DNA of 28,646 nt from a virus. Its lineage: Duplodnaviria; Heunggongvirae; Uroviricota; Caudoviricetes. The DNA lies in IMG/VR virus record IMGVR_UViG_2925914267_000001, positions 1 through 28,646 of that record; one strand, written 5' to 3'. A program made the translations under genes and the position numbers. Shown here piece by piece: positions 287 to 21,984 of the stretch (position 1 is the stretch's first letter; the number at the start of each line of letters is the position of its first letter). The notes beneath the pieces are model-generated. The model was not told the origin of the DNA, ran no database searches, and saw only the letters and a list, made by a program, of their open reading frames with translations.

Positions 287-412
287 ATGAATGAGCCTCG
301 TTGTATTGCTCAGTTATTGCGTAACGAAAGCCCCAGGGCGATTGACTTCACCATCACCCACGGTAAGGGGCGTAAGGGAATCATTATCCGCACCAAAAAC
401 AGAGTCCGTTAA
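287..412 (+). CDS. small basic early-operon ORF (orf78-like), 41 aa
   Basis: ATG at 287 sits 6 nt after AAGGAG (275-280); stop TAA 410-412. An alternative ATG at 291 is in frame with B and open to 953, so the true reading frame here is ambiguous. Confidence 0.35.
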   Translation: MNEPRCIAQLLRNESPRAIDFTITHGKGRKGIIIRTKNRVR

Positions 413-452
413 AAAAGGCTCTGACCTTTCTGAAAAGCCGGAGGGTCTGGAA

Positions 453-953
453 ATGACAGTGATGACGCTCAATCTCGTTGAAAAACAGCCAGCAGCTATG
501 CGCCGGATAATTGGTAAGCATCTGGCCGTCCCTCGCTGGCAGGAGACATGCGATTATTATAATCAGATGATGGAACGCGAACGGCTAACGGTTTGCTTCC
601 ATGCGCAGTTAAAACAGCGTCACGCAACGATGCGTTTTGAAGAAATGAACGACGTCGAACGTGAACGGCTGGTTTGTGCAATTGATGAACTGCGTGGGGC
701 ATTCTCAAAACGCCGTCAGGTCGGTGCAAGTGAGTATGCATATATTAGCTTTTTAACTGTCAGTCAGCGCCGTACTTTATTTATGCATGCCGGATTGACT
801 GAAAAAGAATTCAACCAGCCATACTGGCGAATTAATGAAGAATCATGTTACTGGCGTGATGCCTTATTCCGTGCATTACGTGAATTATTCAGCCTGTTTG
901 AGTATGCACCGACAATTCTGACGTCGGTAAAACCAGAGCAATATCTGCATTAA
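453..953 (+). CDS. B: replication protein B (helicase-loader-like)
   Basis: 166 aa from ATG 453 (GGAGGG at 440-445); sequence MTVMTLNLVEKQPAAMRRIIGKHLAVPRWQ... matches recalled P2 gpB in length and sequence. Confidence 0.85.
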   Translation: MTVMTLNLVEKQPAAMRRIIGKHLAVPRWQETCDYYNQMMERERLTVCFHAQLKQRHATMRFEEMNDVERERLVCAIDELRGAFSKRRQVGASEYAYISFLTVSQRRTLFMHAGLTEKEFNQPYWRINEESCYWRDALFRALRELFSLFEYAPTILTSVKPEQYLH

Positions 954-1016
954 GTAATTAACCAGAGTTTTTAACGCACTTAATTGTGCGGGGCTTCTTT
1001 TTGCCTGGAGAAAGTC

Positions 1017-1241
1017 ATGCATACAGTTTCTGAAAATCAGTGCGGTAAATACGCATTACTGCTGCAACAGGCCAGAACCGAAGCACAGGCCGACGCAGCG
1101 ACGCGCTTTTCTTCTCATCTTGACGCCATGATTCGCCACATCACAAAGGCGGAGTTATCCCGCGTAGAGATAGTCGAGCTGCTCAGTCAGGAGTCGGAAA
1201 AATTTCACAATATCGGATTGTCTCGCGGGGAGGTGCTTTGA
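1017..1241 (+). CDS. orf80-like hypothetical early protein
   Basis: ATG 1017 preceded by GGAG; the listed ORF start at 984 is a TTG; stop overlaps the next start (TGATG at 1239-1243). Confidence 0.7.
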
Positions 1242-1543
1242 TGTCCTGTTCTCGTTCAGTTGTATTACTGAATAACGCCTTAAAAATCACCGTTATGAAA
1301 AATGGCGATCTATCTCTTATTCAACTTGGTCTTGATAAAGAAAAACGCGAAATAACTGAGTCTGTTATCGCGATTTATCAGAACGAATTAAATCTCCTGT
1401 CTGATGTGGTCAATTTACTTGTTAAACGCGCTGTATTTCACAAGCAAATCTCCTCCGTGGATGAACTGACGAAATTAACGACAGAAATTGCCAGCTATTG
1501 CGCTGATGAATTTAAAAAACTTAACGACAAAAGGAACTGGTAA
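1241..1543 (+). CDS. orf81-like hypothetical early protein
   Basis: ATG 1241 overlaps the upstream stop; conserved position in the P2 early operon. Confidence 0.7.
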   Translation: MSCSRSVVLLNNALKITVMKNGDLSLIQLGLDKEKREITESVIAIYQNELNLLSDVVNLLVKRAVFHKQISSVDELTKLTTEIASYCADEFKKLNDKRNW

Positions 1544-1767
1544 TGCCGGACAACGTAGATTTTATTCAGGAACAACAGGCTGAATTACTGGAGCGTCAGA
1601 TTAACGCGGCAAGGGTAAAACATTGCGGAGCTTCTGCGCTGGTTTGCGAAGAGTGTGACGCGCCAATACCTGCTGCCCGTCGTGCGGCTTATCCGTCAGC
1701 CACGCGTTGTGTTTCCTGCCAGTCAGTCTTTGAAGCAAAAAACAAACATTACCGGAGAACGGCATGA
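1543..1767 (+). CDS. DksA/TraR-type C4 zinc-finger protein (orf82-like)
   Basis: 74 aa; Cys pairs CEEC and CVSC separated by about 17 residues; start overlaps the upstream stop (TAATG). Confidence 0.75.
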   Translation: MPDNVDFIQEQQAELLERQINAARVKHCGASALVCEECDAPIPAARRAAYPSATRCVSCQSVFEAKNKHYRRTA

Positions 1768-2038
1768 GTATTCGTATTGAAATTGGCGAACGTTATGTCG
1801 TTACCAGTGACAGCTTTCAGTTTATTCTCCACGAGAAAAAGAGAGCGGAAGCGGTAAAAACGCCGGTCAGGAATGGCTGGCGGTGGTTGGTTATTATCCG
1901 AAATTAAGCCAGCTCGTTTCCGGCCTGATGCATCACGATATTCTGACCGGAAGCGCAAAGTCTTTTGCTGATTTAAACGCGCAGGTTGAGCAACTCAGCA
2001 GGCGTTGTTCAGAGGCTTTTGGCTCATATGGCCGTTAA
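1764..2038 (+). pseudogene. orf83-like early gene, reading frame broken by an apparent 1-nt deletion
   Basis: ATG 1764 with GGAG upstream stops at 1905-1907 after 47 codons; a second frame stays open from about 1811 to TAA 2036-2038 with no upstream start and ends in the usual overlap with the A start. The two parts join if one A is restored near 1848-1850. Confidence 0.55.
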
Positions 2039-4103
2039 AGCCTCCGGGCGTTTTGTCCCTCCTTCAGCATTTGCTGCAGGCACCGGTAAGGCGTTTACCG
2101 GTGCTTATGCATGGAACGCGCCACGCGAGGCCGTCGGGCGCGAAAGACCCCTTACACGTGACGAGATGCGTCAGGTGCAAGGTGTTTTATCCACGATTAA
2201 CCGCCTGCCTTACTTTTTGCGCTCGCTGTTTACTTCACGCTATGACTACATCCGGCGCAATAAAAGCCCGGTACACGGGTTTTATTTCCTCACATCCACT
2301 TTTCAGCGTCGTTTATGGCCGCGCATTGAGCGTGTGAATCAGCGCCATGAAATGAACACCGACGCGTCGTTACTGTTTCTGGCAGAGCGTGACCACTATG
2401 CGCGCCTGCCGGGAATGAATGACAAGGAGCTGAAAAAGTTTGCTGCCCGTATCTCATCGCAGCTTTTCATGATGTATGAGGAACTCAGCGATGCCTGGGT
2501 GGATGCGCATGGCGAAAAAGAATCGCTGTTTACGGATGAGGCGCAGGCTCACCTCTATGGTCATGTTGCTGGCGCTGCACGTGCTTTCAATATTTCCCCT
2601 CTCTACTGGAAAAAATACCGTAAAGGGCAGATGACCACGAGGCAGGCATATTCTGCCATTGCCCGTCTGTTTAACGATGAGTGGTGGACTCATCAGCTTA
2701 AAGGCCAGCGTATGCGCTGGCATGAAGCGTTACTGATAGCTGTCGGGGAGGTCAATAAAGACCGTTCTCCTTATGCCAGTAAACACGCCATTCGTGATGT
2801 GCGTGCGCGCCGCCAGGCAAATCTGGAATTTCTTAAATCGTGTGACCTTGAAAACAGGGAAACCGGCGAGCGCATCGACCTTATCAGTAAGGTGATGGGC
2901 AGTATTTCTAATCCTGAAATTCGCCGGATGGAGCTGATGAACACCATTGCCGGTATTGAGCGTTACGCCGCCGCAGAGGGTGATGTGGGGATGTTTATCA
3001 CGCTGACCGCGCCGTCAAAGTATCACCCGACTCGTCAGGTCAGAAAAGGCGAAAGTAAAACCGTTCAGCTTAATCACGGCTGGAACGATGAGGCATTTAA
3101 TCCAAAGGATGCGCAGCGTTATCTCTGTCGTATCTGGAGCCTGATGCGCACGGCATTCAAGGATAATGATTTACAGGTCTACGGTTTGCGAGTCGTCGAG
3201 CCACACCACGACGGAACGCCGCACTGGCATATGATGCTTTTTTGTAATCCACGCCAGCGTAACCAGATTATCGAAATCATGCGTCGCTATGCGCTCAAAG
3301 AGGATGGCGACGAAAGAGGAGCCGCGCGAAACCGTTTTCAGGCAAAACATCTTAACCGGGGCGGTGCTGCGGGGTATATCGCGAAATACATCTCAAAAAA
3401 CATCGATGGCTATGCACTGGATGGTCAGCTCGATAACGATACCGGCAGGCCGCTGAAAGATACTGCTGCGGCTGTTACCGCATGGGCGTCAACGTGGCGC
3501 ATCCCGCAATTTAAAACGGTTGGCCTGCCGACAATGGGGGCTTACCGTGAACTACGCAAATTGCCTCGCGGCGTCAGCATTGCTGATGAGTTTGACGAAC
3601 GCGTTGAGGCTGCACGTGCCGCCGCAGACAGTGGTGATTTTGCGTTGTATATCAGCGCGCAGGGTGGGGCAAATGTTCCGCGTGATTGCCAGACTGTCAG
3701 AGTCGCCCGTAGCCCGTCGGATGACGTTAACGAGTACGAGGAAGAAGTCGAGAGAGTGGTCGGCATTTACGCGCCGCATCTCGGCGCGCGTCATATTCAT
3801 ATCACCAGAACGACGGACTGGCGCATTGTGCCGAAAGTTCCGGTCGTTGAGCCTTTGACTTTAAAAAGCGGCATCGCCGCGCCTCGGAGTCCTGTCAATA
3901 ACTGTGGAAAGCTCACTGGTGGTGATACTTCGTTACCGGCTCCCACACCTTCTGAGCACGCTGCAGCAGTGTTGGATTTGATTGATATAGGGGTGGTTAG
4001 TTGGAATGATGCTGAGGTGATGACAGTTCTTAGGAAGAGATTAAAAGATTACTCACGGGAATTGATGGTATTCAAAGGAAGGGCTAGCCAACGCCCAATC
4101 TGA
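2028..4103 (+). CDS. A: replication initiation protein A (rolling-circle nickase)
   Basis: 691 aa from ATG 2028 (MAVKASGRFVPPSAF...); long match to recalled P2 gpA. The last roughly 50 codons differ from my recollection of P2 and sit in AT-rich DNA. Confidence 0.9.
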   Translation: MAVKASGRFVPPSAFAAGTGKAFTGAYAWNAPREAVGRERPLTRDEMRQVQGVLSTINRLPYFLRSLFTSRYDYIRRNKSPVHGFYFLTSTFQRRLWPRIERVNQRHEMNTDASLLFLAERDHYARLPGMNDKELKKFAARISSQLFMMYEELSDAWVDAHGEKESLFTDEAQAHLYGHVAGAARAFNISPLYWKKYRKGQMTTRQAYSAIARLFNDEWWTHQLKGQRMRWHEALLIAVGEVNKDRSPYASKHAIRDVRARRQANLEFLKSCDLENRETGERIDLISKVMGSISNPEIRRMELMNTIAGIERYAAAEGDVGMFITLTAPSKYHPTRQVRKGESKTVQLNHGWNDEAFNPKDAQRYLCRIWSLMRTAFKDNDLQVYGLRVVEPHHDGTPHWHMMLFCNPRQRNQIIEIMRRYALKEDGDERGAARNRFQAKHLNRGGAAGYIAKYISKNIDGYALDGQLDNDTGRPLKDTAAAVTAWASTWRIPQFKTVGLPTMGAYRELRKLPRGVSIADEFDERVEAARAAADSGDFALYISAQGGANVPRDCQTVRVARSPSDDVNEYEEEVERVVGIYAPHLGARHIHITRTTDWRIVPKVPVVEPLTLKSGIAAPRSPVNNCGKLTGGDTSLPAPTPSEHAAAVLDLIDIGVVSWNDAEVMTVLRKRLKDYSRELMVFKGRASQRPI

Positions 4104-4328
4104 TTATGTTTTGTAATGATAAGTTAATGCTGAATGAGTGGCTCGCGCATAACCTTGCGGGAAAAAGAGCATATTATGTACAGTTTTGAGGTTGGCTAGA
4201 GGGGATGGGCGAGATAGTTTGTGTTTGTGTGGGTTTGAGAAGTTTGATGCGCACATCAAAAATTGATACAACTGATTGAAAAAATGATAAAAAAGCTGTT
4301 AAATGCGTCAGTTTTCTAAGGGGGGAAG

Positions 4329-4454
4329 ATGAAAAAAATAACCAAGAGAAAAGAGAGAGAGATATTTTACGATCCTATTTACATCGTACAGGAAGAGATG
4401 TTGTATCTGCAGGGCGCTCTAAGATTAATCCTATTTCAAAAGCATCAAAAATAA
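4329..4454 (+). CDS. small basic ORF (41 aa) in the island leader, function unknown
   Basis: ATG 4329 follows a G-rich Shine-Dalgarno-like AAGGGGGGAAG; sequence MKKITKRKEREIFYDPIYIVQEEMLYLQGALRLILFQKHQK; AT-rich context; may be spurious. Confidence 0.25.
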   Translation: MKKITKRKEREIFYDPIYIVQEEMLYLQGALRLILFQKHQK

Positions 4455-4624
4455 ATCGTTGGATAAATGCGCAAATTAAAGATGGATTAAATTGCGAAAT
4501 AAGGAAAAATAGAGACCTTTTCCTTACTTTACCTAAAAATGAACTTTTCAAGTAATTACCATCGTACAATGCAAGCCATACAAACGATTAGGCATCTTAC
4601 GGGGCGGAAGATATTTAATAACCA

Positions 4625-5455
4625 ATGTTACCGTCTTTGTTTGTTGACTTTTCGAAGATTGAATATATTTCTGCATCTGCCGCATTGGTATTGACCGCGG
4701 AATTATCAAAATGGGATGATTCGGTAAGGCAACGCATTCGCCCAAAAGTGAAAACGTGGAATAAAAACATACTCTCTCAATTTGATGAGTTGGGTTTTTT
4801 TGACTTATTTAGAAATAAAGATAGTTTTGAGCTTGAAAAAGAAAAGGAACCAAGTAATATCCGTTTTGTTAAGTATATGAAAGGACATTTACATGATGAT
4901 GAAAAAACTCAGCATTTAAAAAAAGAAATAAAGCGTATTGTGGGAGAAGACCTTGGTAAATGGACTTTCCTATACAGTGGTTTGTCCGAAGCTATTACAA
5001 ATGTTGTTCATCATGCTTATCCAGATAATAAAGGCTATCATGAGCATGATAAAAAATGGTATTTAACTGCTTCATATGATAGTTCAAGTAGAATAATAAA
5101 AGTAGTGTTCTATGATCAAGGTATTACAATTCCTGGGTCTTTGCCGGAATCTAAACTCCATGAAAAGGTTTTAAATTACCTTTCGAAGTTACCGCTTGCA
5201 GAACGAAAAAGAGATGAACAATTGTTAAAGGCTGCAGTTGAAATCAAACGTTCTAGTACGGGGGAAGAGGATCGGGGTAAAGGCTTGCAGGACTTGTTGG
5301 AGTTCATAAAGCAACGTGGTGAAGGTTATCTTTCAATTATGAGTGGTAAAGGCCTTTACAAATACTCACAACATGATAAAAAATCTGAGGTAAAATCAGT
5401 AAGCTTCGCTCTGCCTGTTTGTGGTACACTTATAGTATGGAGTACAAAGCTATGA
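4625..5455 (+). CDS. GHKL (HATPase_c) kinase-like ATPase, RsbW/SpoIIAB-like
   Basis: 276 aa; N-box E122-AITN-VVHH-A131 (nt 4988-5017), G1-like D164-Q-G166, G2-like G218-K-G-L221 and G241-K-G-L244; AT-rich; stop overlaps the next start. Confidence 0.6.
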   Translation: MLPSLFVDFSKIEYISASAALVLTAELSKWDDSVRQRIRPKVKTWNKNILSQFDELGFFDLFRNKDSFELEKEKEPSNIRFVKYMKGHLHDDEKTQHLKKEIKRIVGEDLGKWTFLYSGLSEAITNVVHHAYPDNKGYHEHDKKWYLTASYDSSSRIIKVVFYDQGITIPGSLPESKLHEKVLNYLSKLPLAERKRDEQLLKAAVEIKRSSTGEEDRGKGLQDLLEFIKQRGEGYLSIMSGKGLYKYSQHDKKSEVKSVSFALPVCGTLIVWSTKL

Positions 5456-5751
5456 TTACTAGATTGGTTGCTAGCCTCATGAAAACATTGAAGATTGGTT
5501 CAGAGTTCTCGAAAGTTCCCAGAGGCCGCTATCGTACTGACGGGACAGCAAGTGGTGAACGGTTTAGAGAAGATTTCTTAAGAAAGCGTCTAAGCTTGCT
5601 TTCTGCTGGGGAAAAATTGCAGATAGTCATCGATGATGATGTCGAAGGATATGGTTCGTCTTTTTTGGTGGAGGGCTTTGCGGGCATGGTAAAATATGGA
5701 TATATGCATGCCAATGAGTTATTGTCTAAAATTGAAATTAAAATATACTAA
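5452..5751 (+). CDS. small STAS-like (DUF4325-like) protein, putative partner of the GHKL protein
   Basis: 99 aa from ATG 5452, which overlaps the upstream stop as ATGA, with GGAG at 5439-5442; C-terminal IVIDDDVEGYGSSFLVEGFAGMV resembles the STAS-like SSF-motif region. ATG 5437 is an alternative start. Confidence 0.45.
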   Translation: MITRLVASLMKTLKIGSEFSKVPRGRYRTDGTASGERFREDFLRKRLSLLSAGEKLQIVIDDDVEGYGSSFLVEGFAGMVKYGYMHANELLSKIEIKIY

Positions 5752-5822
5752 TCCTGATTTTGATTTCTATAAAAAGAAAATAGAACAATATATCAACGAG
5801 GCGCAGTTTAATTCGAAACGAT

Positions 5823-6485
5823 ATGAGCCAACAGTCGAATAATCCGATGTTTATTTTAGGTGAGGGTTCTGGTGAGTTCTCACCTAGTTTGCTTTTTATC
5901 AAGAAGGATAATGAAGAAGGCCTGAGTGCTACTCATGCAGTTAAGGATATTAATACGATAATTGAAGTAGCTAGTTCTAATATTGTTGATGCAATACGGC
6001 ATCCACCTGAAACGCCTATTTTATCGTCATCACTTATTACGGCTCTTATTAGTACTATTTGTGCGGCCACTGCTGCATTTGCATATAATAAAGTCCATTG
6101 GCGTTCTGTTGTTAAACGGGAGACTAAAACCAAACTCCTGGAGAGTATTTCAGATGTGGTTAATGAGTTGCGTTCTGATGCTATTAGTTATTGGTTGAAG
6201 GGGTATTCAAAAAAGTCGGCGAAGTCTCTCTTAGAAGAGGAAATGAGAATTAAGGCGAGTTTAAATATAATAAATTCGACTATAACAATATATGTTCAGC
6301 AAGAGTCGCGATGGAAAAGAAAGGATATTGAAGCTCAGTTAAGGGTTTTTCATGACGAACTTTTTGATATTATAACAGGTGATGATTTTGAGTCTCAGGC
6401 AAGGAAGCAGGATAAGGCAAAGGTTTCTGCTATTTCTACAAAGTGTGTGGCTTTTCGCGTTTTATTAAATACCATCAAGTTTTAA
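5823..6485 (+). CDS. single-pass membrane protein, putative effector, function unknown
   Basis: 220 aa; hydrophobic helix ILSSSLITALISTICAATAAFAY (about nt 6018-6086); charged K/E-rich C-terminal part; same strand and AT-rich composition as the two genes upstream. Confidence 0.5.
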   Translation: MSQQSNNPMFILGEGSGEFSPSLLFIKKDNEEGLSATHAVKDINTIIEVASSNIVDAIRHPPETPILSSSLITALISTICAATAAFAYNKVHWRSVVKRETKTKLLESISDVVNELRSDAISYWLKGYSKKSAKSLLEEEMRIKASLNIINSTITIYVQQESRWKRKDIEAQLRVFHDELFDIITGDDFESQARKQDKAKVSAISTKCVAFRVLLNTIKF

Positions 6486-6617
6486 GATAGCCATGCATGA
6501 GTTTGGTGCATGAAAATGCATGAGGTTTTACGAATTATTTTGGCTAAAATCAGCCTGCCCTGACTGGCTACGGCAGATATCATGCACCTGCATTAAAACC
6601 GCCCCATGAAGCGGGCG

Positions 6618-6636
6618 GGCGAGGCGGGGAAAGCAC
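6618..6636 (+). other. cos: cos site, 19-nt cohesive end GGCGAGGCGGGGAAAGCAC
   Basis: Exact match to the P2/186 cohesive-end sequence as I recall it; located between the cargo island and Q, as expected for the packaged genome termini. Confidence 0.8.
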
Positions 6637-6780
6637 TGCGCGCTGGCGGTGGTGCTGATTTTATTTTTTCAGCGTCTGAGCGCGTCGTGAAGGCGCTTAG
6701 TCTGCCCGTTGAGGCGTTGGTGTGTCTGCGGGGTGTTTTGTGCGGTGGTGAGCGTGTGAGCGCGTGATGACGGGGGTGTA

Positions 6781-6804
6781 AAAAAAGCCGCCCGCAGGCG
6801 GCGA
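6781..6804 (-). terminator. rho-independent terminator downstream of Q
   Basis: On the - strand GCCGCC-TGCG-GGCGGC stem-loop followed by TTTTTTT, starting 4 nt after the Q stop codon (6808-6810). Confidence 0.65.
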
Positions 6805-6807
6805 TGT

Positions 6808-7841
6808 TCAGCCGTTGTCAGTGTCCAGTGAGTAGTTTTTAAAGCGGATGACCTCCTGACCGAGCCAGCCGTTTATCTCGCGGATCCTGTCCTGTAGCGG
6901 GATAAGCTCATTGCGGACAAAGACCTTTGCCACTTTCTCAATATCACCCAGCGACCCGACGTTCTCCGGCTTGCCGCCCATCAACTGAAAGGGGATGCGG
7001 TGCGGCGTCCAGCAGGTCAGCGGCGCTGGCTTTTTTGATATTAAAAAAATCGTCCTTCGTTGCCACTTCACTGAGCGGGATAATTTTAATGCCGTCGGCT
7101 TTCCCCTGCGGGGCATAGAGAAACAGATTTTTAAAGTTGTTGCGGCCTTTCGACTTGACCATGTTTTCGCGAAGCATTTCGATATCGTTGCGATCCTGCA
7201 CGGCATCGGTGACGTACATGATATATCCGGCATGAGCGCCGTTTTCGTAATACTTGCGGCGGAACAGCGTGGCCGACTCATTCAGCCAGGCAGAATTAAG
7301 GGCGCTGAGATATTCCGGCAGGCCGTACAGCTCCTGATTAATATCCGGCTCCAGCAGGTGAAACACGGAGCCGGGCGCGAAGGCTGTCGGCTCGTGAAGG
7401 ACGGCACCCACCAGTAAACATCCTCCTCCACGCCACGGCGGGTATATTTTGCCGGTGAGGTTTCCAGTCTGATGACCTTACCGGTGGTGCTGTAACGCTT
7501 TTCCAGAAACGCATTACCGAACACCAGAAAATCCAGCACAAAGCGGCTGAAATCCTGCTGGAAAGCCACGGGTGCGGAATAAACGTTGAAGCCAGAATAT
7601 TACGTTTGACGTAAATCGGTGAGCTGTGATGTACGGCAGCACGCAGGCTTTTTGCCAGACCGGTAAAGCTGACCGGTGGCTCATACCATCTGCCGTTACT
7701 GATGCACTCGACGTAATCCAGAATGTCACGGCGGTCGAGTACCGGCACCGGTTCACCAAAGGTGAATGCCTCCATTTTCGGGGCGCTGGCGGTCATTTTT
7801 TTTGCCGCAGGTTGCGGTGTTTTCCCTTTTTTCTTGCTCAT
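6808..7841 (-). pseudogene. Q: portal protein gene Q, frame interrupted at three points
   Basis: Four consecutive - strand ORF pieces (7338-7841, 7282-7569, 6944-7411, 6808-7281) together cover a 344-aa P2 Q-like protein. Breaks are near 7560 and 7396 (1-nt deletions in G runs on the + strand) and near 6998-7006 (net +1). Confidence 0.8.
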
Positions 7842-9614
7842 CAGTAAAACTCCAGAATGGTGGATGTCAGCGGGGTGCTGATACCGGCGGTGAGTGGCTC
7901 ATTTAACAGGGCGTGCATGGTCGCCCAGGCGAGGTCGGCGTGGCTGGCTTCCTCGCTGCGGCTGGCCTCATAGGTGGCGCTGCGTCCGCTGCTGGTCATG
8001 GTCTTGCGGATAGCCATAAACGAGCTGGTGATGTCGGTGGCGCTGACGTCATATTCCAGACAGCCACGGCGGATAACGTCTTTTGCCTTGAGCACCATTG
8101 CGGTCTTCATTTCCGGCGTGTAGCGGATATCGCGCGCGGCGGGATAGAACGAGCGCACGAGCTGGAACACGCCGACACCAAGGCCGGTGGCATCAATACC
8201 GATGTATTCGACGTTGTATTTTTCGGTGAGTTTGCGGATGGATTCCGCCTGAGTGGCAAAGTCCATGCCTTTCCACTGGTGACGCTCAAGTATTCTGAAT
8301 TTGCCACCGACCACCACCGGCGGTGCCAGCACCACGCATCCGGCGCTGTCGCCACGGTGTGACGGGTCGTAACCAATCCATACCGGACGTGAGCCGAACG
8401 GATTTGCGGCAAACGGCGCATAGTCTTCCCATTCTTCCAGCGTGTCGACCATGCAGCGTTGCAGCTCCTCGAACGGGAACACCGACGCCTTGTCGTCAAC
8501 AAATTCACACATGAACAGGTTTTTTAAAATCGTCGGCGCTGTTTTCACGTTTGAGCTGCTCAATGTCGAACAGTGTGCAGCCACCTTTCAGGGCGTCCTC
8601 AATGGTGACAATCTGCCGCCACTGGCCGTCCGCACAGAGAAGACCTCCGGCAAGGGCGTTATGACTGACGTCGATTTCCACGCGTTCGGCGGCGCTGGCG
8701 CGTCCCCGGTTAAACAGTTCACCGGACCAGAACGGATAGGCGTCGTGCGCCAGCGTGGACGGGGTGGAGAAATAGGTCGAGCGCAGGTGACTCTGTGAGG
8801 CCATACCTGATGCCACCTTACGCAGTACCTGAAAATTCGGGATCCAGAAAATCTCGTCGACGTACAGGTCGCCGTTATGGCTCTGCGCGGTGTTGGAGTT
8901 GGTGCCGAGAAAAATCAGTTTTGCGCTGTTATTGCCCAGGACAATCGGGTCACCGGTCAGGTCAACGTCAACCAGCCGGGCAAAGGCGATGATGTATTCG
9001 CGGAACACATACGCCTGCGTTTTACTGGCCGACAGAAAAATCTGGTTATGACCGGTTTTCAGGGCGCGCAGCAGCGCCTCGCGGGAAAAATAAAACGTCG
9101 CGCCAATCTGGCGGGATTTCAGGATATCGCGGATGCGGTGCTCAAGCCCGGCGCGATACCAGTGCAACTGATAGTCGAAAGACTGCTCAAAGAAAATCTG
9201 CTCCAGCTTTTCGATGGCCTCGTCACTGAAAAAATTCTTTTTCGGTTTGCGACGCCCGCCTTTGTTGCGGTTAGCGACGTTCGGATTAAGGTCTGCCTCG
9301 TTGCCGGTCTGACTGTAGCGGTTGACCCGCGCCAGCCGTTCAATCTGGCGTCCCAGCAGGTCAATTTCCTTGAAGTCACCGCCGGTTTTCTGCGGTTTGA
9401 TGATGAGCTGGGTCAGCCGCGCTTCCAGACTCATTTCGACACGGCTGATGGGGGCAACGCTGTCCCAGCCGTCGCGCTGTTTCCAGCTCTGCACCGTCGG
9501 GCGTTTCATCTGCAACATGGCGGCAATCTGCGGCACGGAAAACCCCTGCCAGTACAGCAGCGCCGCCTGACGACGCGGGTCGTGTAAAAGAGTGGTGTCT
9601 GTGGTGATGGTCAT
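7841..9614 (-). pseudogene. P: terminase large subunit gene P, frame interrupted once
   Basis: ORFs 8505-9644 and 7841-8584 together match the 590-aa P2 gpP; ATG at 9614 (MTITTDTTLLHDP) after GAGG; break at the T6/A6 run 8519-8524; stop overlaps the Q start. Confidence 0.8.
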
Positions 9615-9787
9615 GAATACCTCGCCGTGATGAATACACGGCAAGGCTACTGAGTCGCGCCCCGCGATTCGCTAAGGTGCTGTTGTGTCAGTGATAAGCC
9701 ATCCGGGACTGATGGCGGAGGATGCGCATCGTCGGGAAACTGATGCCGACATGTGACTCCTCTAATCACTATTCAGGACTCCTGACA
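9615..9787. promoter_or_regulatory. divergent late-promoter region between P and O (Ogr-dependent in P2)
   Basis: Intergenic region between divergently oriented P and O. By P2 knowledge it holds the two late promoters, but I found only imperfect TGT-N12-ACA-like dyads. Confidence 0.35.
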
Positions 9788-10641
9788 ATGGCAAAAAAAG
9801 TCTCAAAATTCTTTCGTATCGGCGTTGAGGTGACACCTGTGACGGGCGTGTCATCAGTGCGCAGGATATTCAGGAAATGGCCGAAACCTTTGACCCGCGT
9901 GTCTATGGTTGCCGCATTAACCTGGAACATCTGCGCGGCATCCTGCCTGACGGTATTTTTAAGCGTTATGGCGATGTGGCCGAACTGAAGGCCGAAAAGA
10001 TTGACGATGATTCGGCGCTGAAAGGCAAATGGGCGCTGTTTGCGAAAATCACCCCGACCGATGACCTTATCGCGATGAACAAGGCCGCGCAGAAGGTCTA
10101 CACCTCAATGGAAATTCAGCCGAACTTTGCCAATACCGGCAAATGTTATCTGGTGGGTCTGGCCGTCACCGATGACCCGGCAAGCCTCGGCACGGAATAC
10201 CTGGAATTCTGCCGCACGGCAAAACACAACCCCCTGAACCGCTTCAAATTAAGCCCTGAAAACCTGATTTCAGTGGCAACGCCCGTTGAGCTGGAATTTG
10301 AAGACCTGCCTGAAACCGTGTTCACCGCCCTGACCGAAAAGGTGAAATCCATTTTTGGCCGCAAACAGGCCAGCGATGACGTCCGTCTGAATGACGTGCA
10401 TGAAGCGGTGACCGCTGTTGCTGAACATGTGCAGGAAAAACTGAGCGCCACTGAGCAGCGCCTCGCTGAGGTGGAAACCGCCTTTTCCGCACTTAAGCAG
10501 GAGGTGACTGACAAGGTGGATGAAACCAGCCAGGCATTCACCCGCCTGAAAAACAGTCTCGACCACACCGAAAGTCTGACCCAGCAGCGCCGCAGCAAGG
10601 CCACCGGTGGTGGCGGTGACGCCCTGATGACGAACTGCTGA
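9788..10641 (+). pseudogene. O: capsid scaffold gene O, frame interrupted once
   Basis: MAKKVSKFFRIGVE from ATG 9788, then a frame change near 9827-9831 (GAGGTGAC, one G short), then a continuous P2 gpO match to 10641; reconstructed length 284 aa. Confidence 0.8.
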
Positions 10642-10699
10642 CCGGCGTCAGTCAGTCCGGGAAAACCTTCACGATTAACCCTTAATTTCAGGAAAAACT

Positions 10700-11772
10700 A
10701 TGCGCCAGGAAACCCGCTTTAAATTTAATGCCTACCTGTCCCGTGTTGCCGAACTGAACGGCATCGACGCCGGTGATGTGTCGAAAAAATTCACCGTTGA
10801 ACCGTCGGTCACCCAGACCCTGATGAACACCATGCAGGAGTCCTCTGATTTTCTGACCCGCATCAATATTGTGCCGGTCAGCGAAATGAAAGGGGAAAAA
10901 ATTGGCATCGGTGTCACCGGCTCCATTGCCAGCACCACCGACACCGCCGGTGGCACCGAGCGTCAGCCGAAGGATTTTTCGAAGCTGGCGTCAAACAAGT
11001 ACGAATGCGACCAGATTAACTTCGATTTTTATATCCGCTACAAAACGCTTGACCTGTGGGCGCGTTATCAGGATTTCCAGCTCCGTGTCCGTAACGCCAT
11101 TATCAAACGTCAGGCTCTTGATTTAATCATGGCCGGTTTTAACGGTGTGAAGCGTGCCGAAACCTCTGACCGCAGCAGTAACCCGATGCTGCAGGATGTG
11201 GCGGTCGGCTGGCTGCAGAAATACCGCAATGAAGCCCCGGCGCGCGTGATGAGTAAGGTCACTGACGAGGAAGGCCGCACCACCTCTGAGGTTATCCGCG
11301 TGGGTAAGGGCGGTGATTATGCCAGCCTTGATGCACTGGTGATGGATGCGACCAACAACCTGATTGAGCCGTGGTATCAGGAAGACCCTGACCTTGTGGT
11401 GATTGTGGGGCGTCAGTTACTGGCGGACAAGTATTTCCCCATCGTTAACAAGGAGCAGGACAACAGCGAAATGCTGGCCGCTGACGTCATCATCAGCCAG
11501 AAACGCATCGGTAACCTGCCAGCGGTACGCGTCCCGTACTTCCGGCGGATGCGATGCTCATCACGAAGCTGGAAAACCTGTCCATCTACTACATGGATGA
11601 CAGCCATCGCCGCGTGATTGTGGAAAACCCGAAACTCGACCGCGTGGAGAACTACGAGTCAATGAACATTGATTACGTGGTGGAAGACTACGCCGCCGGT
11701 TGTCTGGTGGAAAAAATTAAGGTCGGTGATTTCTCCACACCGGCTAAGGCGACCGCAGAGCCGGGAGCGTAA
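10700..11772 (+). pseudogene. N: major capsid protein gene N, frame interrupted once
   Basis: ORFs 10700-11617 and 11554-11772 together match the 357-aa P2 gpN; break near 11540-11548 (TTCCGGCGG, one C short). Confidence 0.8.
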
Positions 11773-11775
11773 CCG

Positions 11776-12561
11776 ATGACGAGTCCCGCACAGCGCCACA
11801 TGATGCGGGTCTCGGCAGCGATGACCGCGCAGCGGGAAGCCGCCCCGCTGCGACATGCAACTGTCTATGAGCAGATGCTGGTTAAGCTCGCCGCAGACCA
11901 GCGCACACTGAAAGCGATTTATTCAAAAGAGCTGAAGGCCGCGAAAAAACGCGAACTGCTGCCGTTCTGGTTGCCGTGGGTGAACGGCGTGCTGGAACAG
12001 GGCAAAGGTGCACAGGATGACATTCTGATGACGGTCATGCTGTGGCGTCTGGATACCGGCGATATTGCCGGTGCGCTGGAGATTGCCCGTTATGCCCTGA
12101 AGTACGGTCTGACCATGCCGGGTAAACACCGCCGCACTCCGCCGTACATGTTCACCGAGGAGGTGGCGCTTGCGGCCATACGCGCTCACGCTGCCGGTGA
12201 ATCCGTGGATACCCGCCTGCTGACGGAGACCCTTGAACTGACCGCCACGGCTGACATGCCTGATGAAGTGCGCGCAAAGCTGCACAAAATCACCGGTCTG
12301 TTTCTGCGTGACGGTGGTGATGCCGCCGGTGCGCTGGCTCACCTGCAACGTGCGACCCGGCTCGACTGTCAGGCAGGCGTCAAAAAAGAGATTGAACGAC
12401 TGGAGCGGGAGCTGAAACCGAAGCCGGAGCAGCAACCCAAAGCGGCCACCCGTGCCACGCGTAAGACCCGGAGCGTGACACCGGCAAAACGTGGACGCCC
12501 GAAAAGAAAGCCAGTTAACAACCGAATGCGCCCCGCGCCAGGGCGGCACGCCGGTCAGTGA
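11776..12561 (+). CDS. M: terminase small (endonuclease) subunit
   Basis: 261 aa; MTSPAQRHMMRVSAAMTAQREAAPLRH... matches recalled P2 gpM; position after N. Confidence 0.85.
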   Translation: MTSPAQRHMMRVSAAMTAQREAAPLRHATVYEQMLVKLAADQRTLKAIYSKELKAAKKRELLPFWLPWVNGVLEQGKGAQDDILMTVMLWRLDTGDIAGALEIARYALKYGLTMPGKHRRTPPYMFTEEVALAAIRAHAAGESVDTRLLTETLELTATADMPDEVRAKLHKITGLFLRDGGDAAGALAHLQRATRLDCQAGVKKEIERLERELKPKPEQQPKAATRATRKTRSVTPAKRGRPKRKPVNNRMRPAPGRHAGQ

Positions 12562-12617
12562 GGGTGAATCACCTGACACTGCACCGGCGTCCACCGCCCG
12601 ACTTTTCAGAGGTAGTC

Positions 12618-13127
12618 ATGATGACGCTGATTATTCCGCGAAAGGAGGCTCCCGTGTCCGGTGAGGGTACGGTGGTCATCCCGCAACCGGCAGGCGACGA
12701 GCCGGTGATTAAAAACACGTTCTTTTTTCCCGATATCGACCCGAAGCGCGTCCGGGAACGTATGCGCCTTGAGCAGACCGTCGCCCCCGCCCGTCTGCGT
12801 GAGGCCATCAAGTCAGGCATGGCTGAAACGAATGCGGAGCTGTACGAGTACCGTGAACAGAAAATTGCCGCCGGTTTTACGCGTCTGGCGGACGTCCCGG
12901 CGGACGATATCGACGGTGAAAGCATCAAAGTTTTTTACTACGAGCGCGCCGTGTGTGCGATGGCGACCGCGTCGCTTTATGAGCGTTATCGCGGTGTGGA
13001 TGCCAGTGCAAAAGGCGACAAGAAGGCCGACAGCATAGACAGCACTATTGATGAGCTGTGGCGGGATATGCGCTGGGCAGTGGCGCGTATCCAGGACAAG
13101 CCGCGCTGCATCGTGAGTCAAATCTGA
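12618..13127 (+). CDS. L: head completion / stabilisation protein
   Basis: 169 aa from ATG 12618 (MMTLIIPRKEAP) after GAGG; stop overlaps the X start (TGATG). Confidence 0.85.
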   Translation: MMTLIIPRKEAPVSGEGTVVIPQPAGDEPVIKNTFFFPDIDPKRVRERMRLEQTVAPARLREAIKSGMAETNAELYEYREQKIAAGFTRLADVPADDIDGESIKVFYYERAVCAMATASLYERYRGVDASAKGDKKADSIDSTIDELWRDMRWAVARIQDKPRCIVSQI

Positions 13128-13330
13128 TGAAGACCTTTGCGCTACAGGGCGACACGCTCGACGCCATTTGTGTCCGGTATTACGGGCGCACTGAGGGCGT
13201 GGTTGAGACCGTGCTCGCCGCAAATTCGGGACTGGCTGAACTGGGTGCGGTGCTGCCACACGGCACCGCCGTCGAACTGCCCGACGTTCAGACCGCGCCC
13301 GTGGCTGAAACTGTCAATCTGTGGGAGTAA
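13127..13330 (+). CDS. X: tail protein X
   Basis: 67 aa MKTFALQGDTLDAICVRYYGRTEGVVETVLAAN... matches P2 gpX. Confidence 0.85.
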   Translation: MKTFALQGDTLDAICVRYYGRTEGVVETVLAANSGLAELGAVLPHGTAVELPDVQTAPVAETVNLWE

Positions 13331-13333
13331 CGC

Positions 13334-13615
13334 ATGACAGCAGAAGAAAAAAGCGTCCTGTCGCTTTTCATGATTGGGGTGCTGATTGTTGTCGGCAAGG
13401 TGCTTGCCGGTGGTGAACCCATAACCCCGCGTCTGTTTATCGGGCGCATGTTGCTCGGTGGTTTTGTCTCGATGGTTGCCGGTGTTGTTCTGGTGCAGTT
13501 TCCTGACCTGTCACTGCCTGCGGTGTGCGGCATCGGTTCCATGCTGGGTATCGCCGGTTATCAGGTGATTGAGATTGCCATTCAGCGTCGCTTTAAGGGC
13601 AGGGGGAAACCGTAA
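13334..13615 (+). CDS. Y: holin
   Basis: 93 aa with hydrophobic helices; position and sequence match P2 gpY. Confidence 0.85.
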   Translation: MTAEEKSVLSLFMIGVLIVVGKVLAGGEPITPRLFIGRMLLGGFVSMVAGVVLVQFPDLSLPAVCGIGSMLGIAGYQVIEIAIQRRFKGRGKP

Positions 13616-18548: not shown

Positions 18549-19846
18549 CAGTGAAATACTACGCCATTCTGACTAATCAGGGCGCAGCACGGCTGGCTAA
18601 CGCGACGATGCTTGGCAGTAAGCTGAATCTGACGCAAATGGCCGTTGGTGATGCGAATGGTGTCTTGCCGACACCAGACCCGGCACAGACAAAACTGATT
18701 AATCAGAAACGCATTGCACCGCTGAATCTTCTGAGTGTTGACCCGAACAACCAGAGCCAGATTATTGCGGAGCAAATCATCCCTGAGAACGAGGGCGGAT
18801 TCTGGATCCGTGAGATTGGGCTTTATGATGATGAAGGCGTACTCATTGCGGTGGCCAACTGCCCGGAAACGTACAAACCGCAGTTACAGGAAGGCAGTGG
18901 TCGTACCCAGACTATCCGCATGATTCTGGTTGTCACGAATATCGAAGCCATCACGCTGAAAATCGACCCGTCGGTGGTACTGGCGACCCGTAAATATGTG
19001 GATGATGAAGTCCTGGAATTAAGGCTGTATGTGGATGACCAGATGAGAAACCACATTGCCGCACAGGATCCTCATACCCAGTATGCACAGAAACATAATC
19101 CGACATTTACCGGAGAACCAAAAGCCCCGACGCCTGCCGCAGGAAATAACACCACGCGGATTGCGACCACTGAGTTTGTTCAGGCCGCTATTACCGCTCT
19201 GATTAACGGCGCGCCAGCCACGCTGGACACACTGAAAGAAATTGCCGCAGCCATTAACAATGACCCGAAATTCAGCACCACCATTAACAATGCGCTGTCA
19301 GGTAAGCAGCCACTGGATGAGACGCTGACTCATTTGAGCGGAAAGGATGTTGCCGGCCTTCTCGCATACCTTGGTTTGGGAGAAGGCTCTGTATTACCCG
19401 TTGGTGTGCCTGTTCCGTGGCCTTCAGCCACACTGCCAACAGGCTGGCTGAAATGCAACGGGGCGGCATTTTCTGCTGAAGAATACCCGGAACTGGCAAA
19501 GGCTTACCCGACAAATATATTGCCTGATTTACGTGGTGAATTTATTCGTGGCTGGGATGACGGGCGCGGAGTGGACAGTAGCCGGACGTTGTTGTCGTGG
19601 CAAAAAGGCTCTTATCTGGTTCAGGAAGCCAATATATCACCCGACAGCGTGGTGCAGTTTTCGGTAAACGACATTGCCCTGCTGGGATGGGATAAAACTG
19701 AAACCAATTCAGATATTCTCAGAGCGAAAAGTATACCTACAGAACATATCTGGAACCCCGTTCCAGTGGGAGCCTGGGGGATTCAGTATCTGGGTTATGC
19801 AAGGCCACGTAACATTGCATTTAACTACATCGTAAGGGCTGCATGA
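18545..19846 (+). CDS. H: tail fibre protein H: constant N-terminal part plus the currently expressed variable C-terminal part
   Basis: 433 aa; N-terminus MTVKYYAILTNQGAARLANA... is P2 gpH-like; C-terminal part has a phage tail-collar-like stretch (PVGVPVPWPSATLPTGWLKCNG); the crossover site lies inside the gene at 19359-19384. Confidence 0.85.
   Translation: MTVKYYAILTNQGAARLANATMLGSKLNLTQMAVGDANGVLPTPDPAQTKLINQKRIAPLNLLSVDPNNQSQIIAEQIIPENEGGFWIREIGLYDDEGVLIAVANCPETYKPQLQEGSGRTQTIRMILVVTNIEAITLKIDPSVVLATRKYVDDEVLELRLYVDDQMRNHIAAQDPHTQYAQKHNPTFTGEPKAPTPAAGNNTTRIATTEFVQAAITALINGAPATLDTLKEIAAAINNDPKFSTTINNALSGKQPLDETLTHLSGKDVAGLLAYLGLGEGSVLPVGVPVPWPSATLPTGWLKCNGAAFSAEEYPELAKAYPTNILPDLRGEFIRGWDDGRGVDSSRTLLSWQKGSYLVQEANISPDSVVQFSVNDIALLGWDKTETNSDILRAKSIPTEHIWNPVPVGAWGIQYLGYARPRNIAFNYIVRAA
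19359..19384 (+). repeat. left gix/hix-like 26-bp crossover site TTCTCGCATACCTTGGTTTGGGAGAA
   Basis: 12-2-12 structure like hix/gix; 14 bp (TTGGTTTGGGAGAA) are perfectly inverted at 21309-21322. Confidence 0.7.
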
Positions 19847-20463
19847 TGAGCAAGAAAACCATGACTACAGCGGTGCTGAATGAATCGCGGCTGGCAACAG
19901 TTGCAGGAGAGGTTGTTGTCCACAGCTACGATAATAAGACGCGGGAATACCTTTGCACGTCAACCGAATATCTGGCTGTGGGCGTTGGCCTTCCTGCACA
20001 TTCATGCACTGATGCCCCCGGGGAAAGGCGGGCTGGTTATGCAATTTGCCGCACAGCCGACCTGACCGCGTGGGAGTACGTGCCGGACCATCGGGGTGAG
20101 ACAGTCTATAACACAGAAACCCGTGAGGCAGCAGAAATCACCACTCCGGGGGATTACCCTGAAAACACAACCACTGTCGCCCCGTTAACGCCATACGATG
20201 AATGGGATGGTGAGAAATGGGTGACAGATACTGAGGCACAGCATAGCGCCGCAGTAGGCGCGGCAGAAACACAGCGACAGTCACTGATTGATACTGCAAT
20301 GGCTTCCATTAATCTGATTCAACTGAAATTGCAGGCCGGGCGAAAACTGACGCAGACAGAAACCACCCGGCTTAACGTCGTGCTGGATTACATTGACGCG
20401 GTGACGGTAACTGATACCAGCACCGCGCCGGATATCAATTGGCCTGCTCCCCCGGAGGCGTAG
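19843..20463 (+). CDS. G: tail fibre assembly chaperone (Tfa), expressed orientation
   Basis: 206 aa; start overlaps the H stop; sits inside the invertible segment, like U of Mu. Confidence 0.75.
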   Translation: MMSKKTMTTAVLNESRLATVAGEVVVHSYDNKTREYLCTSTEYLAVGVGLPAHSCTDAPGERRAGYAICRTADLTAWEYVPDHRGETVYNTETREAAEITTPGDYPENTTTVAPLTPYDEWDGEKWVTDTEAQHSAAVGAAETQRQSLIDTAMASINLIQLKLQAGRKLTQTETTRLNVVLDYIDAVTVTDTSTAPDINWPAPPEA

Positions 20464-20851
20464 GCCAGACGGGATTTGATGTATCAACGCGCATCAGTAA
20501 GACCCGATATTTTTTCCATTCAGACAACGCGGCGGTTTCTTCTGCCGTCGCGATTTCCGCATCAAAAGCATCCTGTCTCCAGACTATTTCCTTATCAGCC
20601 ATTGAACGCAATACCGTTCTTTTCTGTTCAGCCTGAATAATCTGTTGTTCAGCGGAGAGTGGCGGGATATCAATCCATGCAGGATTACCATTTTTATCAG
20701 CCCCCAGCGTTTTGCCTTCTGGCGCTACGCCTGTGTAAATTGCCATTGTTTCATCATCAACATCAACGCCATTTTCAGGCCATGAACCGGCGCTGATATA
20801 TACCTCTTTTAGTGCTTTCGGATAGAAAGAGCCTTTATAAAATTTATTCAT
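20435..20851 (-). CDS. alternative tail fibre assembly chaperone (Tfa'), silent orientation
   Basis: 139 aa from ATG 20851 (MNKFYKGSFYPKALKEVYI...); convergent with G and overlapping it by 29 bp; begins just after the stop of the alternative fibre segment. Confidence 0.7.
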   Translation of the reverse strand: MNKFYKGSFYPKALKEVYISAGSWPENGVDVDDETMAIYTGVAPEGKTLGADKNGNPAWIDIPPLSAEQQIIQAEQKRTVLRSMADKEIVWRQDAFDAEIATAEETAALSEWKKYRVLLMRVDTSNPVWPTPPGEQAN

Positions 20852-20853
20852 TC

Positions 20854-21335
20854 TTAATACCCCAGCGCGATAAAACAACAATCTTCGGTGCCCTCTCCGG
20901 ATGGCGACCAGTTCTGAATACTGATATGCGTTCTGCTGGCAATACGCACATTCATCGCGGCATTGTAGCCAGATGTTCCACGGTTTCCGGTCGCAAACAA
21001 GCCTGCATAGGGAAAAGCAAATGGTAAGGCATATCCAGCATCAGCTCCCTTTTGTGTTGCCACCGTTCCCCACTGCAACATAAGTTTCACCGGGTTTCCT
21101 GTCGTCGCAATGCATGGAATGTAGATGTAGCCATTACCTGACATCATTGACCTGAAGCTGTCTAAATCCAGTAACTTCGAGGCATTATCTGCTCCAACAT
21201 CTCGTGTTGCAGCGGTCCCTAACTGGAGCGCATTTCGGAAGGCTGATACATCAGAAATATCAGATCCATTAGCCGATTTCTGCATAGCTCTGGAGGCTCT
21301 ATTTATCGTTTCTCCCAAACCAACGTTTATGAAAA
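20854..21335 (-). CDS. alternative tail-fibre C-terminal segment (H' variable part) with no start of its own; expressed only after inversion
   Basis: - strand frame open from the right gix-like site to stop 20854; reads ...FINVGLGETIN... across the crossover, sharing GLGE with H at the left site. Confidence 0.7.
21310..21335 (+). repeat. right gix/hix-like 26-bp crossover site TTCTCCCAAACCAACGTTTATGAAAA
   Basis: Inverted partner of the left site; resembles hixL TTCTTGAAAACCAAGGTTTTTGATAA; lies 55 bp upstream of the invertase start. Confidence 0.7.
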
Positions 21336-21390
21336 TGCAGAGATAACGGGCAAGTGGCATCATCTCCGGTTTTTATTCAGGGGGATGCTC

Positions 21391-21984
21391 ATGCTTATTG
21401 GCTATGTACGCGTGTCAACAAATGACCAGAACACGGAATTGCAGCGTAACGCGCTGGAGTGCGCAGGATGTGAGCTGATTTTTGAGGATAAAATCAGCGG
21501 CACGAAGTCCGACAGGCCGGGGCTGAAAAAACTGCTCAGAACATTATCGGAAGGTGACACTCTGGTAGTCTGGAAGCTGGACCGGCTGGGGCGTAGTATG
21601 CGGCATCTGGTCATTCTGGTTGAGGAGCTGCGCGAACGCGGCATTAATTTTCGCAGCCTGACGGATGCCATTGATACCAGCACGCCGATGGGGCGTTTTT
21701 TCTTTCATGTGATGGGTGCCCTGGCTGAAATGGAGCGAGAACTCATTGTCGAGCGGACACGCGCCGGACTGGAGGCGGCCAGAGCCAAAGGTCGTATTGG
21801 TGGCAGACGTCCGAAACTCACCGCGAGTGAGTGGGAGCAGGCCGGGCGGTTGCTGGCTGCAGGGGAATCACGTCAACGCGTGGCACTGATTTTTGATATT
21901 GGCCTGTCCACGCTCTATAAAAAATTCCCCGCCTCAGTGACAAAAAATAAATTGTGTCATCCCTTAGCCAACCGGGACAAATAG
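21391..21984 (+). CDS. serine recombinase, DNA invertase of the Gin/Cin/Pin/Hin family
   Basis: MLIGYVRVSTNDQNTELQRNAL... with the catalytic Ser in YVRVSTNDQ; C-terminal helix-turn-helix-like region; strong similarity to Gin as I recall it. Confidence 0.85.
   Translation: MLIGYVRVSTNDQNTELQRNALECAGCELIFEDKISGTKSDRPGLKKLLRTLSEGDTLVVWKLDRLGRSMRHLVILVEELRERGINFRSLTDAIDTSTPMGRFFFHVMGALAEMERELIVERTRAGLEAARAKGRIGGRRPKLTASEWEQAGRLLAAGESRQRVALIFDIGLSTLYKKFPASVTKNKLCHPLANRDK

Follow-up and report, generated by a model that had tools for sequence, protein, structure and literature searches.

A STAS-like (DUF4325) gene in the gpA-gpQ hotspot of a P2-like Escherichia coli prophage as a candidate phospho-switch of a three-gene cassette

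Introduction

What does a small open reading frame (ORF) do when it directly follows a GHKL-type gene inside a low-GC island between the replication gene and the portal gene of a prophage? This question is raised by a 28,646-nucleotide (nt) stretch of viral DNA (IMG/VR record IMGVR_UViG_2925914267_000001, Caudoviricetes; hereafter the window), which has been identified as a P2-like (Peduovirus) E. coli prophage with cox and other early genes present. The ORF occupies positions 5452 to 5751 and was described in an initial annotation, made from the sequence alone, as a STAS-like protein co-translated with a kinase-like gene and possibly serving as the substrate or antagonist of that kinase. The analysis presented here indicates that the ORF is the 5′ three-quarters of a gene for a 129-amino-acid (aa), or 120-aa, STAS-like DUF4325 protein, referred to as S. 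This gene is the middle member of a cassette that also comprises a GHKL gene upstream (K) and a gene for a predicted membrane protein downstream (X), and S is regarded as a candidate phospho-switch of the K-S-X module.

Kinase-STAS switches have been tied to phage defence only in 2026, through the CapKS and VapKSC systems (Chambers et al., EMBO J 2026, PMC13373217; PDB 9Z7O). CapK combines helix-turn-helix (HTH), STAS and GHKL domains, is switched on by single-stranded DNA (ssDNA) and phosphorylates the repressor CapS, which consists of a STAS domain and a winged helix-turn-helix (wHTH). VapK (STAS and GHKL) phosphorylates the antitoxin VapS, a 116-aa STAS protein with a C-terminal helix, upon which the PIN toxin VapC is freed. 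The VapKSC operon gave approximately 100-fold protection against one phage, and inhibition by VapS depends on its C-terminal helix (PMC13373217).

Boundaries of the S gene

The elements that define the S gene are the following.

5452-5842, plus strand: S gene, STAS-like (DUF4325), 129 aa when intact; in the window the frame is shifted, with a stop at 5751 after 99 codons
5439-5442, plus strand: GGAG Shine-Dalgarno-like motif, 9 nt 5′ of ATG 5452, read directly from the sequence
5479-5481, plus strand: alternative, family-conserved start, Met10 of the 129-aa form, an ATG in 16 of 22 loci

The end first assigned to the ORF, at 5751, had to be abandoned. Base-by-base alignment with three intact relatives, whose S gene shows no other difference, reveals an extra A in the A-run at 5740; this A creates the stop at 5749-5751, and the true end is the TAA at 5840-5842. 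With the extra base taken out, the product is a protein of 129 aa identical to WP_198515647.1, the protein of the relatives, which is annotated as 'DUF4325 domain-containing protein'. The genes are intact, and the encoded proteins identical, in all three relatives whose annotation was inspected. The 30 residues lost to the frameshift include the invariant F103, Y113 and Y124. Since the restored S reads on to 129 aa, the stretch VIDDDVEGYGSSFLVEGFAG, which had been placed at the C-terminus and is indeed present, lies mid-protein at residues 59-78 of 129. This stretch is the most conserved part of the family, and the central invariant loop of S reads YGSSFLVEGFAG. For annotation, the lesson is that the ORF seen in the window has arisen as an artefact, through a frameshift in a longer gene.

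The features that had been cited for a start at 5452 are all present, with the ATG at 5452-5454 overlapping the upstream TGA at 5453-5455 as ATGA and the GGAG standing 9 nt ahead of it. The choice of this start is nonetheless less certain, as the conserved start of the family corresponds to ATG 5479. Residues 1-9 (MITRLVASL) are unconserved, residues 1-8 are disordered in the structural model, and several of the 22 loci have no in-frame start at all upstream of the Met10-equivalent codon. The Shine-Dalgarno motif is better at ATG 5452 than at ATG 5479, and both 129-aa and 119-120-aa forms of S are found in databases. Relative to the K stop, the conserved S start ranges from a 4 nt overlap to 24 nt beyond, with 112 nt in one locus. 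Of the proposed co-translation with the upstream gene, the tight packing stands with either start, so that co-expression of K and S is well supported, while the ATGA overlap is limited to the enterobacterial lineage.

Family and predicted fold of the S protein

The tentative assignment of S to the STAS-like DUF4325 family has been borne out by hidden Markov model (HMM) searches, in which the intact protein scored 24.1 bits (expectation value, E, of 3e-5) against the threshold of 23 for Pfam PF14213. Membership is marginal for any single sequence, because the truncated ORF of the window reached 20.0 bits, under the threshold, and the closest cluster representative (P0001) 21.9 bits. Across the family, a PF14213 match was detected in 69 of 69 members (E ≤ 0.01, best 4.9e-8), with one other hit, which was spurious, and the RefSeq name given to S is 'DUF4325 / STAS-like domain-containing protein'. 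Homologues of S number 156 at E ≤ 1e-3, the 120 listed being 53-91% identical to S; judged by its sequence, the S gene is far beyond chance. The canonical STAS families PF01740 (STAS) and PF13466 (STAS_2) were absent from the Pfam scans of S, which for the intact protein extended to E = 1, and no NCBIfam family matched S or X. In PHROGs, S aligns (3e-9) with positions 340-439 of phrog_5816, a profile 441 positions long for a phage family annotated as of unknown function; this suggests that longer phage fusion proteins with a C-terminal S-like domain exist.

The columns that are invariant in 69 S homologues include F19, P23, G25, R26, D30, G35, E36, F38, R39 and E40 in the first half of the protein, followed by D61, G68, S69, S70, F71, L72, E74, F76, A77, G78, V80 and G83. 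An AlphaFold2 model of a representative 91% identical to S was obtained with a predicted local distance difference test score (pLDDT) of 92.2 and a predicted template modelling score (pTM) of 0.85, and contains the following elements.

Residues 11-14: strand
Residues 35-48: helix
Residues 56-59: strand
Residues 69-81: helix (alpha2)
Residues 87-93: helix
Residues 94-97: strand
Residues 101-116: helix

Structure comparison of this model recovered an alpha/beta STAS topology, in agreement with the fold initially proposed, and the similarity of S to the STAS fold is considered real but distant. A Foldseek search of the S model against the PDB (library to 2026-04-08) returned no significant match, and 9Z7O was not among the results. 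Likewise, comparison of the S, K and X sequences with all PDB chains gave no relatives, although VapS (9Z7O) was in that set.

The feature of this fold that bears most directly on function is a pair of serines.

5656-5661, plus strand: Ser69/Ser70 codons, predicted phospho-acceptor site; an invariant pair within YGSSFLVEGFAG, placed at the helix alpha2 N-cap

Neither Ser69 nor Ser70 varies in alignments of 22 and of 69 S sequences, and helix alpha2 begins at residue 69. S thus carries the conserved Ser/Thr at the N-terminus of helix alpha2 by which phospho-regulated STAS proteins are recognised. The alpha2 N-cap is the place of phosphorylation in SpoIIAA, in CapS (Ser54 in DSSF) and in VapS (Ser48) (PMC13373217).

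The K protein

4329-5455, plus strand: K gene, 376 aa in its intact form, for a kinase-like GHKL ATPase that has a STAS-like segment; in the window broken by deletions

The GHKL nature of the upstream gene was recognised correctly at the outset, but the extent given to it was not, as the ORF at 4625-5455 covers only the final 276 codons of the gene, which has 376 and begins at 4329. In the window this gene lacks 1 nt at 4350 and at 4640 and 2 nt at 4539, and in relatives its product is WP_032254602.1, a protein of 376 aa annotated as 'ATP-binding protein'. An invariant N-box, EAITNV.HHAYP (E222, N226, H230), is followed by YDQG (D264, G266) and by the further invariant ATP-binding motifs DRGKG (D316-G320) and GTL, with G1 and G2 kept. 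As read from these motifs, the ATP-binding site of K is intact.

When a profile of 17 K orthologues was compared by hhalign with VapK, whose sequence was taken from the supplementary model file of PMC13373217, a probability of 93.6% (E 2e-7) was obtained over 140 columns corresponding to the GHKL domain. Other family matches of K are weaker, with HATPase_c_2 found below threshold in 12 of 17 members and faint, sub-threshold NCBIfam matches to RsbW and SpoIIAB; in PHROGs, K belongs with phrog_3364 (4e-45). A conserved STAS-like stretch at approximately residues 107-132 (VxFxxLxxISxSAALVLTAELSKWDD) has been seen by eye, outside the hhalign alignment to VapK. The N-terminus of K is basic.

The X protein

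5847-6485, plus strand: X gene, intact in the window, 212 aa, or 220 aa if read from the in-frame ATG at 5823

In relatives, the product of X is WP_126646822.1, a hypothetical protein of 212 aa. Its N-terminus is variable and is missing from some orthologues. One hydrophobic helix has been detected at approximately residues 58-80 (Kyte-Doolittle 19-residue maxima of 1.3-2.45, reaching at least 1.6 in 15 of 19 orthologues), directly followed by a basic HWK..EKK segment (HWK..K/R). The conserved domain of approximately 130 aa folds as a four-helix bundle in AlphaFold2 models, with a pLDDT above 90. X is predicted to cross the membrane once and to carry a four-helix bundle, which we infer to be cytoplasmic.

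Among 18 members of the X family, neither a PIN match nor any consistent Pfam match was found. A weak match to RsbRD_N, a partner-switching domain, occurred in 1 of 18 orthologues only and was set aside as spurious, and a PHROGs 'tail fiber/lysozyme' match (E 0.007) was dismissed as noise. Positions 5856-5887, just inside the 5′ end of X and right after the S stop, could form a terminator-like hairpin, its stem 14 bp long and its tail T-rich, that might lower the expression of X relative to S.

Conservation and spread of the cassette

Searches with the S profile of contigs representing one genome per species yielded 17 loci, in 16 of which K, S and X occur in the same order and orientation. 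Since X travels with K and S in these 16 loci across distant phyla, it is regarded as part of the system. The hosts comprise diverse Gammaproteobacteria, Desulfuromusa, Desulfocapsaceae and Gallionella. Intergenic distances range from small overlaps to a few tens of nt, with one K-S gap of 112 nt, and identity to the E. coli proteins is 44-54% for K, 51-67% for S and only 24-33% for X. A divergent cassette, with an S protein 56% identical, occupies the same gpA-portal interval in a Citrobacter P2-like prophage, and a P2/186-like prophage of Vibrio fluvialis carries a copy between the cI repressor and the integrase.

The cI-integrase site of V. fluvialis is a hotspot other than the one used in E. 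coli, and the copy there (L021:5925-12458) adjoins two genes, one of 442 aa annotated as unknown and one in which a WYL domain is weakly matched. In a Thiotrichaceae metagenome-assembled genome (L020:5938-6327), an S homologue 54% identical was found with no K or X detected beside it, and is either an orphan copy or one with partners too divergent to detect. A PADLOC v2 run on the ORFs of the window and the intact proteins gave PDC-M03B as its sole match (E 0.04), which is spurious, and the mentions of GHKL in the DefensePredictor and WASA Vibrio papers refer to unrelated systems.

Setting in the P2 hotspot

The cassette and its borders in the window are arranged as follows.

1986-4103, plus strand: P2 replication gene A (gpA), left hotspot border; Pfam Phage_GPA at 1e-122 and RefSeq annotation of relatives
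4104-6500, no strand assigned: low-GC cargo island holding K-S-X, approximately 2.4 kb at approximately 36% GC against approximately 55% in the flanks (composition profile)
6808-7841, minus strand: portal gene Q, frameshifted here, right hotspot border; from annotated relatives, with indels at 7004, 7395 and 7560
7841-9644, minus strand: terminase gene, next after the portal gene; terminase Pfam matches

The gpA-gpQ interval is an anti-phage hotspot of P2, in which old and tin are located in P2 itself (Rousset et al. 2022, PMC9122126), and constitutes the best-validated ground for finding new defence systems. The small ORF lies inside the low-GC island between gpA and the portal gene; as is characteristic of hotspot cargo, the cassette sits between gpA and Q and is variable among similar prophages. 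Of 5426 complete E. coli genomes, 14 contain, at 98.6-99.7% identity, a 2.7-kb region that holds the intact cassette, whereas the flanks of the island are present in more than 2000. Head, lysis and tail genes come after the portal and terminase genes, which occupy 6808-9644 on the minus strand.

Among the P2 gpA-gpQ loci, the supplementary tables of PMC9122126 contain exactly this arrangement, entered as 'hypothetical + DUF4325 + hypothetical', which corresponds to WP_032254602, WP_032254618 and WP_126646822. The same tables record a 'HATPase_c | DUF4325' system in P4 satellite hotspots (number 69, 9 occurrences) and other P2 hotspot loci that read 'hypothetical + hypothetical + DUF4325 + DinI'. 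These P4 and P2 loci therefore indicate that kinase-STAS pairs recur in hotspots with different partners. A 2026 survey reported that the defence loci of 19% of P2-like phages hold only unknown genes, and that P4 loci with only unknown genes were mostly protective when tested (PMC13586616).

Two further observations concern the prophage itself. The gpA gene ends exactly at the edge of the low-GC island, and in each of the three relatives inspected RefSeq labels it 'incomplete; missing C-terminus', which suggests that insertion of the cargo replaced the 3′ end of gpA. Further along, the tail-fibre and fibre-assembly region at 19600-21400 differs strongly from its counterparts in the closest relatives. 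With a recombinase-family gene (21385-21984) at its flank and neighbouring ORFs (20435-21363) in the opposite orientation, the region looks like an invertible host-range segment.

Proposed role of S and alternative explanations

Taken by analogy with the known kinase-STAS systems, S would be the phospho-switch of a K-S-X module related to VapKSC and carried in a P2 hotspot, a reading to which a probability of about 0.5 is assigned. According to this model, K would phosphorylate S at the invariant Ser69 or Ser70 upon a signal derived from the phage or from stress (infection or damage). Unphosphorylated S would hold X inactive through its STAS face and the conserved C-terminal helix and tail (residues 101-129), the part that is lost to the frameshift in the window. 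Once phosphorylated, S would release X, with membrane damage or growth arrest as the outcome, in a defence of the abortive-infection type. Phosphorylation, S-X binding, toxicity of X, a signal sensed by K and anti-phage activity would all be expected from the analogy. The role of kinase substrate or antagonist put forward in the initial annotation fits the experimentally established precedent of VapS, another DUF4325 protein, and of CapS (PMC13373217) as well as the VapK-homologous GHKL domain of K; its phosphorylation and binding components we infer by analogy only.

A broader and more tentative proposal, placed a little short of even odds, is that K-S-X constitutes a distinct anti-phage abortive-infection system, in which a switch of the VapK/CapK type has been rewired to a membrane four-helix-bundle effector. 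If true, kinase-STAS pairs would represent a general, modular immunity sensor with interchangeable effectors, spread in P2-like phages from E. coli to Vibrio. The cassette would show the same sensor pair driving a different output, a membrane protein of no known family, and would thus point to a portable sensing module. RefSeq annotation of the S family already exists and the kinase-STAS principle appeared in print in 2026, while the membrane-effector version in P2 hotspots is uncharacterised. As the cassette is compact (2.2 kb) and sequenced E. coli strains carry it intact, in strain E275a for example at 1384273-1386432 of NZ_CP035865.1, it is directly testable.

Several observations weigh against S as a VapS-like phospho-switch. 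The hhalign alignment of K to VapK is confined to the GHKL domain and does not extend to the STAS-like part, and F54 of VapK, an aromatic residue in contact with ssDNA, has no conserved counterpart in K in an alignment made by eye, so that the trigger of K may differ. Comparison of the S family with VapS, alone or together with two homologues, gave non-significant hhalign E values of 0.2-0.3, and a search of PDB sequences with the S-family HMM does not retrieve 9Z7O. In these non-significant alignments, residues 34-123 of S are collinear with 18-98 of VapS and Ser69 stands opposite Ser48; a scan of metagenome contigs for VapS homologues, intended for a bridging profile, yielded only 2 loci. 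Because direct comparisons are not significant, homology between S and VapS rests on the shared Pfam model and the fold, and the S family lies near the threshold of that very model. No match to PADLOC-DB v2 was obtained for intact K, S or X even at E ≤ 1. In PMC9122126 the cassette is catalogued with neither a mechanism nor a name, and the table of tested systems there holds no DUF4325 entry. Finally, K and S are both frameshifted in the window.

Different mechanisms have been considered for the same three genes. K could be a GHKL ATPase rather than a kinase, with S as a non-phosphorylated regulatory or adaptor subunit that responds to an ATP-driven conformational change, for instance by binding a nucleotide or other ligand or by bridging K to X. 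Such an arrangement is unlikely, considering that the closest detectable relative of the K GHKL domain is VapK (93.6%), whose family phosphorylates STAS serines (PMC13373217), that the weak family matches of K are solely to the Ser-kinase anti-sigma factors RsbW and SpoIIAB, and that the invariant Ser-Ser of S occupies the alpha2 N-cap, the phosphorylated place in SpoIIAA, CapS and VapS. Quite improbable is a classical partner-switching or transcription module, in which K would be an anti-sigma factor or anti-regulator, S its antagonist or a CapS-like repressor and X unrelated, and which would tune prophage or host gene expression through a sequestered host or phage transcription factor. The cassette contains no sigma factor or DNA-binding gene and S has no wHTH; moreover, X is co-conserved in 16 of 17 loci and the cassette is self-contained, moving between prophage hotspots. 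A canonical anti-sigma module, given the missing sigma factor and the co-conservation of X, and a CapS-like repressor role for S, given the missing wHTH, have accordingly been rejected.

A separate alternative, which concerns the local copy only and is compatible with any functional model, is that the frameshifts are real and the window holds a true pseudogene fragment in a decaying prophage, from which nothing functional is made; if so, the local copy is dead. This is considered doubtful. Against several intact relatives, the window shows single-base indels dispersed over positions 395-13602, with few beyond 13.6 kb; they disrupt the reading frames of the genes for K, S, portal, terminase, scaffold and capsid. 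Examples are the following.

395, 1849, 4350, 4539, 4640, 5740, 6772, 7004, 7395, 7560, 8520, 9829, 11542 and 12502: indels in the window

The breakage of at least six genes between 395 and approximately 13600 speaks for a decaying prophage. The 2.2-kb cassette, however, carries 4 indel events and 2 substitutions only against relatives that are otherwise approximately 99.9% identical, and several indels, including those at 4640, 5740, 6772 and 8520, lie in or beside short homopolymer runs. Because the indels outnumber the substitutions and have a homopolymer setting, a pattern that error-prone sequencing typically leaves and gradual decay does not, sequencing error is likelier, and the frameshifts of K and S are probably sequence errors. 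The three annotated relatives inspected all carry identical intact proteins, which likewise argues against decay.

Comparison with known kinase-STAS systems

The K-S-X cassette departs in several respects from the SpoIIAB-SpoIIAA and RsbW-RsbV partner-switching modules, each an anti-sigma Ser kinase with its STAS antagonist. No sigma factor is present here, and K is more than twice the size of SpoIIAB. A canonical STAS domain has a five-stranded sheet; S differs from SpoIIAA and RsbV in having three predicted strands and an extra C-terminal helix.

The cassette resembles the DNA-damage-activated pair CapK-CapS in that a GHKL kinase with an internal STAS region (in K a STAS-like segment recognised by eye) is immediately followed by a STAS protein with a conserved serine, phosphorylated in CapS, and the DSSF of CapS compares with GSSF in S. 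In contrast to S, which at 129 aa has no match to an HTH family, CapS has a C-terminal wHTH and is a DNA-binding repressor, and the STAS portion of CapS tested in this analysis gave no DUF4325 match. CapKS also regulates a downstream operon (CBASS, Bub or Thoeris), whereas the K-S cassette described here has X only.

The system most similar to the cassette is VapKSC. In the VapS and VapC sequences, extracted from the 9Z7O deposition, DUF4325 is matched strongly by VapS (62.7 bits) and Pfam PIN by VapC. The third gene sets the two systems apart, X being a predicted membrane protein with a four-helix bundle and not a PIN protein such as VapC, and K is approximately 80 residues longer than VapK at its basic N-terminal region. 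The order of the three genes is nevertheless the same, with a STAS/GHKL kinase (the STAS part of K having been recognised by eye), a small STAS protein and a third protein. In both, a kinase with a GHKL domain of the VapK type lies immediately 5′ of the STAS gene, K and S being neighbours in 16 of 17 loci. At 116-129 aa, VapS and S both belong to DUF4325, and in each the STAS core is followed by a C-terminal helix and a conserved serine stands at the start of helix alpha2; both systems are tied to mobile elements or defence neighbourhoods.

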